A stretch of DNA of 64,000 nucleotides from Bdellovibrionales bacterium (GTDB lineage Bacteria; Bdellovibrionota; Bdellovibrionia; Bdellovibrionales; UBA1609): assembly GCA_965219095.1 (NCBI GenBank), contig CBDCMT010000001.1, positions 128,001-192,000 on the forward strand. Reading direction: 5' to 3'. Shown one piece after another: positions 30,001 to 36,000 of the stretch. Made by a program: the position numbers. Numbering within the stretch: the stretch's first letter is position 1; the number at the start of each line of letters is the position of its first letter.

Positions 30001-33000
30001 TCTCTACAGGAGATAAAAGACTTATAAGTGAACTTTTTTGAGATTCTGTTTCATACTCATAATAAAAAGCTTCACTTGTAGAAACATCCCAAAAACAAAG
30101 GGTTTTCTCATCATAAGCACAGATGTAATAAGCAGATAATTCATCTAAACTCTGAGGATCATAAACCATCCCTGGAGTTAAAACTTGAGTTACTTCTCTT
30201 CTAACTAACCTTTTTCTTTCCTGTAAGTCTTTATCCTGTGGGTTTTCTACTTGATCACAAATAGCCACCTTATAACCGTGGCTTAAAAGTTTTCCCACAG
30301 GTTCACTTAAACTATGATAAGGAAACCCACACATAGGTGTTGTATCGCTTTGTTTTTTGTTTCTTGTAGTTAAAGTAATGTTTAAAAGAGGAGCTGAGAT
30401 CTGAGCATCTTCATAAAACATTTCATAAAAGTCCCCCATACGAAATAACAAAATTTTATCCCGATGTTGAGACTTAATAGACCAGTACTGTCTCATAAGA
30501 GGAGTTTGATTTTTATGCTTTTCTACGTTCATTGCTTTACTATTATTGTCTAGGTTCTCAATCTTCTTTTCAAGAAGAAAGATTTGACTTTTTTCAAATC
30601 ATCTATGAAAAAGTAAGTCAGGAAAAAACTCTCATTTAATGAGTTTTTTTAACCTTTTGCAACATCTCTAGTTCTAATGCATGGTATTATAAAACGAGGA
30701 TAGTACTTGATGAAAGTGATAAAACCTCAAAAGGGAATCTTACAAACAAAGCTTCTTTTTAAACAAAGAAAAAAGACCTTGAAAATTACCATTACTCATT
30801 ACTAAGACTACACAAGCTTGTCGGTCCTTATCTAAAAAACTCTTTACTAACTGCAAAGCTTCAGAAGGTGTTTTAAAACTAAAACTTTTTGTTCCCAAAA
30901 CCCTAAGATCTTCTAAGAGCTTTGGAATTGAGAGAGGGAGTTTCCTTTCTTCTTTACTTAAATGCTGAGGAAGAAGAACTCTATCAGCCTCCTTAAGAGC
31001 CCTCACATAATCATTTTGAAAAAAAGAGCTTTGAGATGTATTAGAACAAGGTTCGAAAACAGCAACGACTTTATGGTCTTTAAAGTGCTCTTTGACTGTT
31101 TCAATCATAGCTTTAACAGATGTAGGGTGATGAGCGAAATCTTCCATTAAAATAACTTTTTTACTTTTTGTTAAAATCTCTTGTCTTCTTTTTATACCTT
31201 TAAAAGATGAAAGACTTTGTTTTGTTTTTTCTAAAGACCATGACAGTTGATGCGATAAAGCTATCACAGAAAGAGCGTTTAAGGCGTTGTGTTTTCCTAT
31301 AAGTTTTAAACTCACTTTTTCTAGGAGACTTTCTCCTAAAAAAGATACAGAAAATGTTTGTTCACAAGAAGATTCAATGTATCTTTTTTTAAGACAGTAA
31401 TCAGCTTCATCAAATCCATAAGAATAACAATTAAGATGAGAAGTGTCTGTTTTATCTAAAATATCTTTTATATTTTTATCATGTTGGTAATAAATAAGAT
31501 TTCCTTTTTTAGGAATGCCTTCTACTAAAAGTTTAAAAGATTTTTTTATCTCACTGATGTCTTTATAAATATCTCCATGGTCAAATTCAATACTGGTTAA
31601 AATCACTGACTGAGGTTTGTAGTGTAAAAATTTAGGACGCTTATCAAAAAAAGATGTGTCGTACTCATCCCCCTCTATAATAAAAAGATTTTTTTGAGGA
31701 AAACAAAAAGATTCAGAATGATTAAAAGGAATCCCTCCAACTAAAAAGCCTGGCTCTAAACCATTTTCTTCTGCTATCCAAGCTAGTAGAGAAGTGGTTG
31801 TGGTTTTACCATGAGTGCCTGCCACAACAAAACACTGTCGATTCTCTATTACCCAAAGTTTTAAAGCTTCAGGGAAACTTAAAAACTTAAGATCAAGTCG
31901 TTTCATCTCCTGAACTTCTTCAAAGTGAGAACTTATCACATTTCCTACAATAACATAGTCAGGTTTATGTTGAAGGTTTTCTCTTTTATAACCTTCAGAC
32001 GTCTGAATGTTGTATTTTTTTAATAAACTTTTTGAAGGTTCATAAATATTTTCATCGCTTCCTGTAATTTGGTGGCCTCTTCTTTTTAAAAGAGCTGCAA
32101 AATTAGACATAATGGATCCTCCGATTCCCATAATATGTATTTTCATAAGTATAGGTCCTGAAGTGGAATAATTAGTTTTCCTTTTCTAAGAGTGCTTTTT
32201 ATATTTAAAGGCAAAAGAGCTTGATCTTTGCCATGACCTGAAGGTAGGCCGTAAAAAACAGGAACTTTCACTTCTTTTTTTGCCCAATTTTTTAATACTA
32301 CTTCCAATAAATTTTGTTCTTTTTTACCTCCTTGGGCTATAAATGATCCTAAAAGAATTGCTTTAAGCCCCTTAAGAAGACCTGCTTGTTTGAGATGTAC
32401 AAGCATACGGTGAACTCTATAACTCTTCTCTCCTATATCCTCTAAAAATAAAAAACAACCTGAAACTTCTGGACAAAAATCTGTACCTATTAAGGTTTGT
32501 AAGACAGAAAGATTCCCCCCTTTGGTAACACCTTTTAAATTTTTTACTTTCATAGCTAAAGAGTTCATAGGTTTTAACTGATAAGACACCTCTTTGATCT
32601 GTCCTTCTAAAAATCGTTCAAGCTGCTTGATATATTTAGGTCCTACGACTCCGTCCACAACTCCGTCTAACAGAGGACCATGAAGAGTAGGCCAATCCCA
32701 GAATTTATGGAGAAAAGAATGTAAAGCTGTGACATCACTATATCCTAACAAAACAGATCTCTTTAAGGGCTTTGAAAACTTAGCTAAAAAGGGAAGTAAA
32801 TGCACACAACCATAACCCCCTCTCAAACACCAAATGATTCCACCCTTTTTTAAAGCTTGTTCAAAAGACCGACTTCTTTTTTTTACATGATGGGAGCAAA
32901 GTAAATCCTCTCCAAACAAAGATGACAGATTTTCATTTCTATAGCTTTTTTGTTTTAAATAACTCTCACATAGTTTCAATGATCTTTTTTTGAGACCAAA

Positions 33001-36000
33001 GCCAGGAGCTACAACAGAAAGAACAAAAGCTTGTTTTTCATTTGTTTTTTTACCCATTTTGTACATTTTATATAAGAAATACAAAAAAAGCTACGAAGAT
33101 ATTTAAAAGTTTTGCCTCCTCAAAAGAACCTCCGGGAACCCACAGATTCTTTTGAGGAGGCATAATTTCTTTGGTAATTACCCTTAAAAAGCTTGCTCCT
33201 ATTAGGTTGTGAATTTAATTCTTATGGCTTTTATTCTCCCTTCATCTTGCTTTAAAGCTTCTTAAGAATCAACTAATCCATAAGCTCCGAAATCTTAATA
33301 AACTAGGCTTTTTAAATAAAAACTCCAGTCAAAAAAGGCTCCGGGATCGGTTTTTCTTCCTGGAGCAATATCACTGTGACCTACAATCCTCTCCGGTACA
33401 ATCTTTGTATAAGATTTCATAAGACAACGTGTAACATCGATGAGCTTTTTGTACTGAAAGTCTGTGTAAGCTTCATCATCTGTACCCTCAAGTTCAATAC
33501 CTATAGAAAAATCGTTGCACCGAGAGCGTCCCTCAAAACAAGAAAGACCAGCATGAAAAGCTCTTTTATGAAAAGGTACAAATTGTATCACTTCACCTGT
33601 ACGCTGTAAAAAAAGATGTGCACTCACTTTAGAATGAACAATGTCTCGAAAAAAGGGATGTTCATTTTCTTGAAGACAGCCTCGAAAAAAATCAATCACA
33701 TGGTTTGAACCATACTCTCCGGGAGGAAGACTGATGTTATGGATCACAAGCAAACTAATGTCTCCTTCATCAGGCCTTTGATCACAATGAGGTGACTCTA
33801 TAAGCTGAGCTTTATCTAAAAGATGATTTGTAATGTTCATTTCAATCCAAGCTTCCAAAAAGATCTGTAGGGTAGTTGCCGTTAAAACAAGCCATGCAAT
33901 AGGATGGGTTTTGAAGAGAGCTTTTTGTAGCTTGAGCTAAACCCTCTTCACTTAAGTACATAAGGCTATCGGCTCCGATAATTTTACGAATTTCATCCAC
34001 ACTTTTATGAGAAGCTATAAGTTGTTGTTTCGAAGGTGTGTCTACACCGTAAAAACAAGGGCCTATTGTAGGGGGTGCCGCTATACGAAGATGAACTTCT
34101 TTAGCTCCTGCCTGTCTTATCAAACCAATGATTTTCGATGAAGTCGATCCTCTTACTAAAGAATCATCAATCACAACAACTTTTTTTCCCCTTATTATAC
34201 AAGCTTGTGGATTGAGTTTGATCTTTAAACCTGCATTACGAATAGCCTGTTCTGGTTGAATAAAGGTGCGACCTACGTAATGGTTTCGGATGATTGCCAT
34301 TTCAAACTTTAAACCACTTTCTTCAGCAAAACCTAAAGAGGCTGCCATACCACTATCAGGTACAGGCATGACAAAATCAGCATCCTTTACAGGAGCTTGT
34401 TTAGCTAAAATACGGCCTGTTTCTTTTCTCACCTTGTAGGCACTAAGACCAAAGACTTCTGAATCAGGCCGAGCAAAATAAACGTGTTCGAAAACACATT
34501 GAGTTTTTCTTTTTTGTTTTTTAAAAAACCGAGATGAAAGGCCTTTATAGCTTATTTCAACAATCTCTCCAGGCTCTACTTCCCTTATGGTCTTTGCTCC
34601 CATAAGATCAAAAGCACAGGTTTCAGAGGCTACTACATAAGAATCCTCAAGCTTTCCTAAAACTAAAGGTCTAAACCCATAAGAATCACGAATGGCGATA
34701 AGGGAGTTAGAGGTTAATACAAGAAAACAAAAAGCTCCTTCTAATTCCAGAAGACTTTCATCAAGAGATTTTTTTTGAGATAAGAGGTGAACGAAATTTT
34801 CTGTATCATTAGTCCCTTGGAATACAATACCTTTTTTGATTAATTTCTCACGAATCTGAGAAGAGTTTACAATGTTGCCATTATGAGCTACTGCTATTTT
34901 CCCCATAGACGTTTCTGCAGTTAAAGGCTGTACGTTTTTTAAATTATTAACTCCTTTTGTGGAATAGCGGACATGTCCTATAGCGGAGGTTTGAGAAGAA
35001 AATTTATGAAGAACTTTTTGATTGAGAACTTGATGAACTAAGCCTAAACCTTTTTGAATAGAGAACATTTGATCTTCATCTATAGCCACTATACCACAAG
35101 CTTCTTGTCCTCGATGCTGTTGGGCACACAGACCTAGGTAGATCATCTCACCGGCTCTTTTATGGGAGAAAACCCCCATTAAACCACACTCTTCTTTAAA
35201 GCTGTTTGATAACATACTTACTTATATTGATTTTTTATGTAAATGTAAAGCAGAGATTAAACACGTCTTACCTCTTCTACTCCTGGCTTCTCCCATAGTG
35301 TCTTACTAAATGGCTTTTTATAAAAATTATGCTATCTTACAATCATGCTAAAGATTTTTCGTTGTATTGATGAACTCATAACCCTCAAAAGAGCTTCTGA
35401 AAAAAAAGCACGCCACATACAAGTAAAGGATCTAAGCCCTCTCTCAAAAGCAGCCTTTATTTCCTATAAAGGAAACATTGTCTGGGTAGGAAAGGATCAA
35501 GACTTAAAACCTTCTTTATTAAAGCCTTACAGACAAAAAGCCAAAGAGTACGTCTTAGAAGGTTTTAGCGTGCTACCAGGTTTTGTGGAAAGTCATACTC
35601 ATCTTCTTTTTGCAGGAAATCGTCAGGATGAGTTCGAAAAAAGAACCCAAGGCTTCTCTTATGAGGAAATTGCTAAAAAAGGAGGGGGTATTTTATCCAC
35701 CATGAGAGCTACAAGAAAGGCCTCCTTAAAAGAGCTTATTCGTAAAGGTCAAATTTACACAGATCGCTTTGTAGCTCAAGGTACTTCAACTCTAGAAATC
35801 AAAACAGGTTATGCTTTAAATCTTAACGGAGAGTTGAAAATGCTAAAAGCTATTAAGAGCTTAAAAGGGCCTCGCAAAATCACAACGCTTTTAGCTCTTC
35901 ATGCTCTTCCCCCTGAGTTCTCCTCATCTCACCACTATACAAGGTTTGTAATAGAGAAGCTCTTACCTAAAGTTATTCATTTGATTGATCGTGTTGATAT

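Follow-up and report, generated by a model that had tools for sequence, protein, structure and literature searches.

Recycling of the cell wall is usually an economy measure that runs beside de novo synthesis. The mpl-ldcA-ampD locus described here lies in G000, a non-flagellated Bdellovibrionales genome of approximately 40% repeats from an uncultured relative of the predatory Bdellovibrio, and it raises the question of whether recycling enzymes could supply the whole of the wall precursor. The window analysed is a 64,000-nucleotide stretch of one contig of this genome. A preliminary description had proposed that de novo synthesis of UDP-MurNAc-tripeptide is gone and that wall polymerisation is intact, a claim that holds across 95 family and 254 order genomes.

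Organisation of the mpl locus

The genes lie where they had been placed and are transcribed from the minus strand in the order purF, ampD, ldcA, mpl, mutS (Table 1). Gene content and order of the proposed mpl-ldcA-ampD operon stand, but ampD is set off from ldcA by a repeat-holding gap, and no RNA run for the operon was found among the listed carriers. The ldcA stop overlaps the mpl start, ampD begins at an ATG just past the purF stop, and a later ATG may be the true start of ldcA. ldcA also stands beside mpl in most of the relatives fetched, and ampD adjoins mpl-mutS in G006 too. GYSD, LEDI and GHG motifs are present in the LdcA translation, which we take to be the catalytic triad. The taxon-bearing names among the best 120 homologs of AmpD are marine Gammaproteobacteria (57-64%), one being given only as 'Pseudomonadota'; ampD was probably acquired from this class.

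Table 1. Features of the mpl locus and of murJ, numbered from the first letter of the window.
Feature	Position	Strand	Evidence and remarks
mutS, downstream neighbour	28067..30532	-	common to mpl loci of relatives
mpl, murein peptide ligase, 468 aa	30740..32146	-	TIGR01081 347.9 bits (cut-off 388.7) vs murC 301.6
ldcA, S66 L,D-carboxypeptidase	32143..33084	-	PF02016 and PF17676 over cut-off
short repeat, likely IS-end remnant	33110..33171	.	258 blastn matches in genome; ~60 bp; in 210-bp ampD-ldcA gap
ampD, cytoplasmic MurNAc-L-Ala amidase, 181 aa	33295..33840	-	NF008758 262.6 bits (cut-off 143)
purF, upstream neighbour	33842..35215	-	TIGR01134 over cut-off
murJ, lipid II flippase (stretch matched by E. 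coli MurJ)	45911..47152 (contig 173911-175152)	-	tblastn 32% identity, E 3e-51

mpl is the sole MurC/Mpl-type ligase gene in G000. Its product is assigned to Mpl on the basis of the Mpl model outscoring the MurC model and of the nearest structures being Mpl (best PDB match Psychrobacter Mpl 3hn7, E 3.7e-76; MurC 1.8e-44), with the curated TIGR01081 cut-off missed; the ortholog in a second genome, G042, passes it with 407.9 bits. The stretch TSFFDKRPK fits the (S/T)AFFDKRSK motif given for Mpl in PMC3060825, a source that also reports the mDAP tripeptide to be favoured about 370-fold over L-Ala. From its sequence, we infer that the G000 enzyme would ligate L-Ala-gamma-D-Glu-mDAP to UDP-MurNAc. 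Two features were counted against the salvage reading: a MurC-like GIGG loop, and EPCSNT at the EPRSNT position, where the EPRS motif, proposed to bind the peptide, has Cys for an Arg that 15 of 16 other rows share.

Genes for precursor synthesis are missing

Six-frame HMM and tblastn searches of G000 detected no MurA, MurB, MurC, MurE, GlmS or DAP pathway. No gene remains for making GlcN-6P, acetylating GlcN-1P, forming UDP-MurNAc, adding the first and third residues of the stem or making mDAP; genes for D-Glu via MurI, Dat or DapF are missing as well. Wider genome sets searched with six-frame HMMs bore out the losses first listed (murA, murB, murC, murE, glmS and dapF). murA is present in 40 of 41 genomes, the sole miss being G000, MurB_C in 92/95 family and 251/254 order genomes, glmS in 94/95 and murE in 93/95. 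The murC model matches only Mpl in the six frames of G000, whose three Mur ligases are Mpl, MurD and MurF, and unfiltered searches with family-built MurC and MurE profiles returned only these three and no remnants. DapF and DapA, each present in three of five genomes tested, were not found in G000; tblastn with E. coli Asd, LysC and DapA/B/D/E gave zero matches, and with LysA weak partial matches only.

Several candidates were rejected. GlmS queries match purF alone, the only GATase match, but this gene scores over the TIGR01134 cut-off and the GlmS-like match is confined to its N-terminal third. A GlmM-like match is scored best by a PGM/PMM model and not by that of GlmM. GlmU is shortened, as had been described, ending at 334 aa within the acetyltransferase domain, after which an IS follows. 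MurI is indeed missing, but 25 of 94 relatives likewise give no Pfam match, so its loss is nothing unusual; found in 69/95 overall with low scores, it is a weak marker. D-amino-acid transaminase, a source of D-Glu, was detected in neither G000 nor G042, and in neither G103 nor G006 either. G052 and G233 were discarded as further loss lineages, other Mur genes being kept in both and MurC of G233 lying at a contig end.

In-place deletions and completeness of the assembly

The loss is reinforced by two clean in-place deletions. One had been noted before: ftsI abuts murF, and this junction is bridged without differences in three of four runs (from a single study, in which one run could itself be the source). 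The other had been missed: prmC ends 10 bp before a TPR gene, with murA absent between them, and the order prmC-murA-TPR is found in G041, G036 and G031 and prmC-murA in G021, G044, G061 and G024. This junction is stronger evidence than the gap between murG and murC, which is weak as an in-place deletion because the closed relatives G006 and G016 likewise split the two genes.

The genome is repeat-rich and its assembly, in two contigs, is 94% complete with at least one real gap, since C1 ends inside a gene; the MurB misses in G052 and G233 are artefacts of just such a kind. That the genes of G000 lie in unassembled parts is nevertheless extremely improbable and already largely refuted: at least six separate loci would all need to fall in a gap, both junctions are clean, each of the 20 amino acids has its tRNA, completeness is just 88-95% in single-contig relatives from the small-genome clade, and the same pattern of loss occurs in G042.

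A second genome with near-identical losses

G042 has no MurA/B/C/E or DapA/F, and its remaining ligases are again Mpl, MurD and MurF. Unlike G000, it has not lost GlmS, and it retains GlmU, AmpG, AmgK-MurU and NagZ; LdcA is fused to Mpl and followed by an Amidase_3 gene. The comparison of wall genes in G042 covers MurA/B, the Mur ligases, the D-Glu sources, DapA/F, GlmS/GlmU, AmpG, AnmK, AmgK-MurU, NagZ and LdcA. Its dcw cluster is scattered, with no clean junction except prfA-prmC without murA; an apparent ftsW-murG junction was dismissed, the upstream gene being a sigma-54 activator. The two genomes stand apart on an RpoBC tree (one clade rejected, AU p=0.023, 20/41 rows), and G042 appears to have reached its similar loss of wall-precursor genes separately.

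Retained genes and a putative salvage route

MurF, Ddl, Alr, MraY, MurG, MurJ, FtsW/FtsI, RodA/PBP2 and two class A PBPs are intact in G000, and MurF, MurD, MraY, MurG, FtsW, RodA, PBP2, one PBP1A, Alr, Ddl, NagZ and AmpD score over curated cut-offs. A long branch, the 40% repeats and the loss of lipid A and flagella would fit a cell that has given up its wall, the remaining genes being leftovers or running a lipid II cycle for division only. We give this very little probability: the synthases for elongation and division are full length, as are MurJ, Alr, Ddl, DacB and the amidases; divergence of MurD, MurF, MraY and Mpl does not exceed that in sister genomes where the pathway is whole; and the lost genes have gone without remnants, whereas those kept are intact.

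The claim that what remains is 'exactly a salvage line' is correct in that NamZ (detected as domains), NagZ, AmpD, LdcA, Mpl and AmgK-MurU are kept, but overstated: the line has no AnmK, AmpG or sugar importer and falls short of that of E. coli or Pseudomonas. amgK and murU are an adjacent pair, an APH-type kinase and a short nucleotidyltransferase, for which AmgK (101 of 550 bits) and MurU (83 of 250) are the best matches, below the NF045759 and NF045761 cut-offs; the pair and an intact HRDYHSRN motif occur in all five genomes tested. AnmK was found in 11 of 74 family genomes, G000 and G042 not among them. AmpG was not found in G000, and E. coli MurP, NagE, NagK, MurQ and NagA/B gave no match there. 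That AmpG, AnmK, MurP and NagE have no match, which leaves the entry of sugar without a carrier, was counted against the salvage reading, as were the scores of AmgK, MurU and G000 Mpl below their cut-offs. An MpaA-like match proved to be a generic M14 peptidase, and no signal peptides were seen on NagZ and NamZ.

oppC adjoins nagZ in G000 and at 11 of 29 other loci; no such oppBC-nagZ link exists within 1.5 kb in G042. In E. coli, MppA/Opp takes up wall peptides that neighbouring cells have set free, and the passages on Opp in PMC10622912 describe it as carrying freed peptides only. That Opp takes only these and yet AmpD is cytoplasmic was counted against the mechanism set out below.

Without genes for either the sugar or the peptide precursor, the wall of G000 is most likely built from wall fragments of other bacteria, and obligate salvage of both halves, sugar and stem peptide, is the reading that its gene content makes likely. 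Fragments from neighbouring or prey Gram-negative bacteria would be imported, with the Opp permease pair beside nagZ as the likeliest peptide importer. NagZ and NamZ would free GlcNAc and MurNAc, AmgK would phosphorylate both, and MurU and the shortened GlmU would yield UDP-MurNAc and UDP-GlcNAc. AmpD and an AmiC-like amidase would release the stem peptide, LdcA would trim it to L-Ala-D-Glu-mDAP, and Mpl would join this to UDP-MurNAc, replacing MurC, MurD and MurE. A net outside supply would be needed because a cell with no AnmK loses the anhydro-MurNAc that its own turnover yields. The scheme assumes that AmgK, MurU and Mpl have the activities predicted from their sequences, and we infer that the cell has no route other than salvage of the complete tripeptide.

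Alternatively, finished precursors or the missing enzymes could come from a eukaryotic host or partner. G000 shows signs of host restriction (no FlgI, no LpxC, IS expansion), all four sequence-bearing runs share one coded organism label, and host-encoded genes have been proposed for mealybug symbionts (PMC9116674). We regard such provision as highly unlikely, since a cell that receives ready-made precursors would have no need of NamZ, NagZ, AmgK-MurU, LdcA, Mpl and an AmpD that it apparently acquired.

Retention of an altered MurD

MurD of G000 scores 380 bits against a TIGR01087 cut-off of 212, its model has a pLDDT of 88.9, and the top Foldseek matches are all MurD. Using residue roles from PMC9780078, the ATP- and D-Glu-site residues K115, N271, R302, D317, T321, K348, S415, F422 and H183 are kept in both genomes. 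The equivalent of Asn138, which binds UDP-MurNAc-L-Ala, is Gly in G000 and Ser in G042; it is Asn in 92 of 93 other MurD rows with a residue there. MurD of G000 departs at 9 of 125 invariant columns (controls 0-8). Relaxed selection was not borne out, identities to the same references being 0.61 for G000 against 0.60 for G021, and 0.70 for G042 against 0.72 and 0.70. A predicted MraY-MurD complex scored 0.02, which speaks neither for nor against a scaffold role of MurD. Retention of MurD at a normal rate, although the salvage model supplies it with no substrate, was counted against the model.

These observations bear on a further explanation, in which sugar is salvaged and the stem is assembled stepwise by broadened ligases, from imported amino acids or as a non-standard stem: Mpl would add L-Ala, the altered MurD would add D-Glu or a piece containing it, and the MurE step would fall to MurD or MurF. 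All four genomes of genus g3 (two single-contig) have MurB, GlmS, MurD, MurE, MurF, MurI and Mpl but no MurC (MurA was checked only in G002), which suggests that the Mpl of this family may also add L-Ala, a point likewise counted against the salvage reading. When overexpressed, mpl of E. coli can stand in for murC in a ts mutant (PMC3060825), and MurD has lost only its acceptor-binding Asn. Aphidini Buchnera without murC/E/F still make a D-Ala-labelled wall, for which a broadened remaining ligase was proposed (PMC9116674); the text concerned calls this ligase MurF though listing murF as lost. Stepwise assembly is still unlikely. Neither genome has a source of D-Glu (MurI, Dat, DapF) or of mDAP, both of which occur in nature mostly inside wall peptides, and MurF shows no sign of a new role: of 33 family-invariant columns, 32 are unchanged in G000 and all 33 in G042.

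Within the preferred reading of tripeptide salvage, the altered MurD may rescue the L-Ala side product of Mpl or ligate a D-Glu-containing fragment. That two Bdellovibrionales lineages separately became complete scavengers in which MurD keeps D-Glu ligase activity with a new substrate or role is a tentative proposal, and a rather doubtful one.

Discussion

The known wall auxotroph Tannerella forsythia keeps MurC-F and needs sugar only. It has no glmS, murA, murB or glmU function, must obtain MurNAc from its surroundings, employs NamZ enzymes and is proposed to have a Pseudomonas-type MurNAc bypass (PMC5790795; bioRxiv 10.1101/2021.12.02.470905). G000 resembles it in the loss of MurA, MurB, GlmS and the GlmU acetyltransferase, and G042 in that of MurA/B only. 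Unlike T. forsythia, both also have no MurC, MurE, known D-Glu sources or DAP pathway, so an outside source of the stem peptide is required too. Importers MurT and AmpG, and signal peptides on NamZ, are described for T. forsythia, whereas in G000 there is no AmpG and no NamZ signal peptide was seen.

The enzymes and proposed chemistry are those of E. coli AmpD, LdcA, Mpl and MppA/Opp recycling (PMC3060825, PMC10622912), but what is a dispensable side route in E. coli is the only visible route in G000, which has no AmpG, AnmK or MurQ. With the AmgK-MurU shortcut of Pseudomonas (PMC5790795; NF045759, NF045761) G000 shares the adjacent gene pair, far below cut-off; unlike there, no AnmK feeds it from anhydro-MurNAc, and MurA/B have been lost rather than just bypassed. 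Aphidini Buchnera have likewise lost stem ligases and retained wall synthesis; they are described as having no recycling pathway (PMC9116674), whereas G000 keeps a recycling set and an intact MurF. We found no report of this gene set in the literature searched, which left most subscription journals outside.

Two points could be tested with purified proteins: whether Mpl of this family also does the work of MurC, as g3 suggests, and why MurD outlasted MurC and MurE. If the altered MurD does have a role in salvage, Mpl, MurD and MurF would be an undescribed three-ligase route to Park's nucleotide. If obligate salvage is correct, recycling alone can sustain a wall, the cell would be tied to Gram-negative neighbours or prey, and the predicted supplement for its cultivation would be an mDAP-type wall digest.

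Loss of precursor genes

The preliminary description held that the genome under study (G000; 3.11 Mb in two contigs, C1 and C2, 34% GC, 94% complete) has lost the genes for de novo UDP-MurNAc-tripeptide synthesis, and comparison with its relatives bears this out. MurA is found in 40 of 41 genomes, G000 being the sole miss, and GlmS in 94/95 family genomes, again missing from G000. MurB is present in 92/95 family genomes (completeness ≥85%) and 251/254 order genomes (completeness ≥92%); the misses are G000, a second genome (G042) and two fragmented genomes keeping the remaining pathway. 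MurE is found in 93/95 family genomes, the misses being G000 and G042. The MurC model matches Mpl alone in six of the 95, namely G000, G042 and four genomes of genus g3. Searches for DapF and for DapA covered five genomes each, and only G000 and G042 lack them. Queries with E. coli Asd, LysC and DapB/D/E had no match in G000, nor did MurI queries from six relatives. MurI absence is a weak marker, since MurI is found in 69/95 genomes. Genera g18, g7, g22 and g44 gave no glutamate racemase match, and one relative (G006) lacks Aminotran_4 as well, though it has DapF. Family-built profiles, applied unfiltered, detected no MurC or MurE remnants in G000. Its GlmU is cut short at 334 aa and followed by IS elements, at the place where glmS lies in three relatives fetched.

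The deletion of murE can be seen in place, as had been proposed: the end of ftsI meets the start codon of murF, where three relatives (G027, G016 and G041) have ftsI-murE-murF, and contigs from three of four runs (all from one study, one run perhaps being the source) span the junction without differences. Similarly, 10 bp separate the end of prmC from a TPR gene in G000, and murA lies between them in G041, G036 and G031; four further relatives have the prmC-murA order. The gap between murG and murC, which had also been read as an in-place deletion, is weaker evidence because G006 and G016 split these genes too. Since C1 stops within a gene, the assembly contains at least one gap, and repeated sequence makes up ~40% of each contig; that the missing genes lie in such a gap is nevertheless hardly credible, and we regard the loss pattern as real. 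The three genes that close C2 recur as a segment within C1, a sign, perhaps, of a duplication or of a different join.

Coordinates of features in G000 and compared genomes
Feature	Sequence	Position	Strand
purF, ampD, 210-bp gap, ldcA, mpl, mutS (in this order)	G000, window		minus
16S rRNA gene, flanked on both sides by tRNA genes	G000, window	60227-61741	
16S rRNA gene with flanking tRNA genes	G000, window	59732-61922	
Last three C2 genes	G000, C2	2394825-2397094	
Segment repeated by these genes	G000, C1	about 220200-222700	
dacB (S13 peptidase), divergent from SBP_bac_5 binding-protein gene	L202 (G000, C1)	4058-7146	
beta-lactamase-family gene, ldcA-mpl interval of relatives	L048	9339-10412	
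beta-lactamase-family gene, ldcA-mpl interval of relatives	L089	8949-10001	
LdcA-Mpl fusion (798 aa)	L085 (G042)	8176-10572	
Amidase_3 gene after the fusion	L085 (G042)	10569-11687	

Wall and salvage genes retained

That the wall is decaying would account for losses of this kind, but we consider it highly improbable given what is kept. MurF, MurD, MraY, MurG, FtsW, RodA, PBP2, a PBP1A, Alr, Ddl and NagZ score over curated cut-offs in G000, and FtsI, a second class A PBP, MurJ, NamZ, DacB, an Slt, two M23 peptidases and an AmiC-like amidase are also found. The adjacent amgK and murU are best matches to the AmgK and MurU models, all below threshold. AnmK (present in 11/74 family genomes) and AmpG were not found in G000. 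Among the best 30 of 71 nagZ holders, examined with 1.5-kb flanks, oppB-oppC lies upstream of nagZ in G000; the arrangement recurs in 11 of the remaining 29 loci. The SBP_bac_5 protein encoded beside dacB is a candidate partner of these oppBC-nagZ permeases.

At the mpl locus, which lies in the window (C2:128001-192000), a common short repeat sits in the ampD-ldcA gap. The window ligase scores higher with the Mpl model than with the MurC model, yet under the Mpl cut-off; it carries the FFDKR motif, which is Mpl-specific (PMC3060825), and its nearest structure is Psychrobacter Mpl. We rejected a misnamed MurC because most relatives carry a true MurC in addition to this Mpl (MurC-model search, 95 family genomes). 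Mpl of G000 and of G042 has Ser in place of Ala after the HHPT motif; the 15 other rows keep Ala. Among the best 120 AmpD homologs, most rows have no taxon; those named are marine Gammaproteobacteria or unspecified Pseudomonadota (57-64%). Of the other mpl loci fetched, that of G006 alone includes ampD. The beta-lactamase-family gene between ldcA and mpl in G027, G031, G043 and G041 had no match in G000.

LpxC is missing from G000 and from 16/16 genomes of the small-genome genera g7, g17, g18 and g3, and is present in 55/74 family genomes; E. coli LpxA/B/D queries had no match in G000. These genomes are possibly a lipid A-free Bdellovibrionales clade.

A second lineage

MurA, MurB, MurC, MurE, DapA, DapF, a MurI match, Dat and FlgI were not found in G042 (4.3 Mb, 10 contigs, 96% complete, 42-45% GC in regions fetched). 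It keeps MurD, MurF, MraY, MurG, AmgK-MurU, NagZ, AmpG and full GlmU-GlmS, and its LdcA and Mpl form one protein; the next gene encodes an Amidase_3 product that shows no clear signal peptide. Transposases lie near murF, and since its dcw genes are scattered no clean junctions are to be had. An RpoB+RpoC tree of 41 genomes places G042 with genera g24, g25 and g9 and G000 among long-branched small genomes, and an AU test rejects a G000+G042 clade (p=0.023; 20 of 41 rows, with long branches in play). Together with the retention of all five ligases in the genomes nearest to each, this indicates that the losses are likely to have been independent.

MurD and the substrate range of Mpl

The loci nearest to G000 MurD show 54-62% identity and are mostly labelled Bdellovibrionales. 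Its predicted structure folds as MurD, and the MurD rate is not elevated in G000 or G042. MurD adjoins mraY in the loci examined, scattered dcw clusters included, and its conservation in Bdellovibrionales is 60-75%, against 32-57% for MurC, MurE or MurF. In an alignment of 96 distinct, Bdellovibrionota-dominated rows, 81 columns are ≥95% conserved in the 94 others; three are changed in G000 and one in G042. The column common to both is the Asn of the GGN motif, by alignment E. coli Asn138, listed as UDP-MurNAc-L-Ala-binding (PMC9780078), and the sole other row without it has Asn one column later. With odds of a chance match of roughly 3 in 81, the shared change is suggestive, not proof. Because every ATP and D-Glu residue is retained, the alignment would favour a changed acceptor over a non-catalytic role with this Asn simply the first residue lost.

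The stem might instead be built by broadened ligases. In four g3 genomes (G002, G103, G104, G105; L096-L114), MurC is the only one missing among genes tested (MurA checked in one), and MurB, MurD, MurE, MurF, MurI, GlmS and Mpl are kept. Overexpression of E. coli mpl rescues a murC ts mutant, and the rate of Psychrobacter Mpl is 0.7 per minute with L-Ala and 260 per minute with tripeptide (PMC3060825). Mpl of this family may therefore double as MurC, g3 being a natural case of a possible stand-in, and MurD would then have a substrate in G000. This route cannot yield a cross-linkable stem, since MurE and sources of D-Glu and mDAP are absent, and broadened ligases are an unlikely explanation.

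Discussion

Supply of precursors by a host is very unlikely, in our view. FlgI, present in 44/74 family genomes, was not found in G000; Type IV pilus/T2SS ATPases and pilins were. Bdellovibrionota with small, non-motile genomes are known from sponges (PMC9944714). Aphidini Buchnera still build a wall without murC/E/F (PMC9116674). Like G000, T. forsythia lacks glmS, murA and murB; it also lacks glmU and requires outside MurNAc (PMC5790795). In the parts of the literature consulted (including PMC3527612, PMC10622912 and bioRxiv 10.1101/2021.12.02.470905) we found no report of a genome that has Mpl and AmgK-MurU yet is without MurA, MurB, MurC, MurE and a DAP pathway; supplementary gene tables could show such cases. 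We conclude that G000 probably depends on obligate salvage of both sugar and tripeptide, and the fragments may come either from prey or from neighbouring cells, in a dense community associated with a host.
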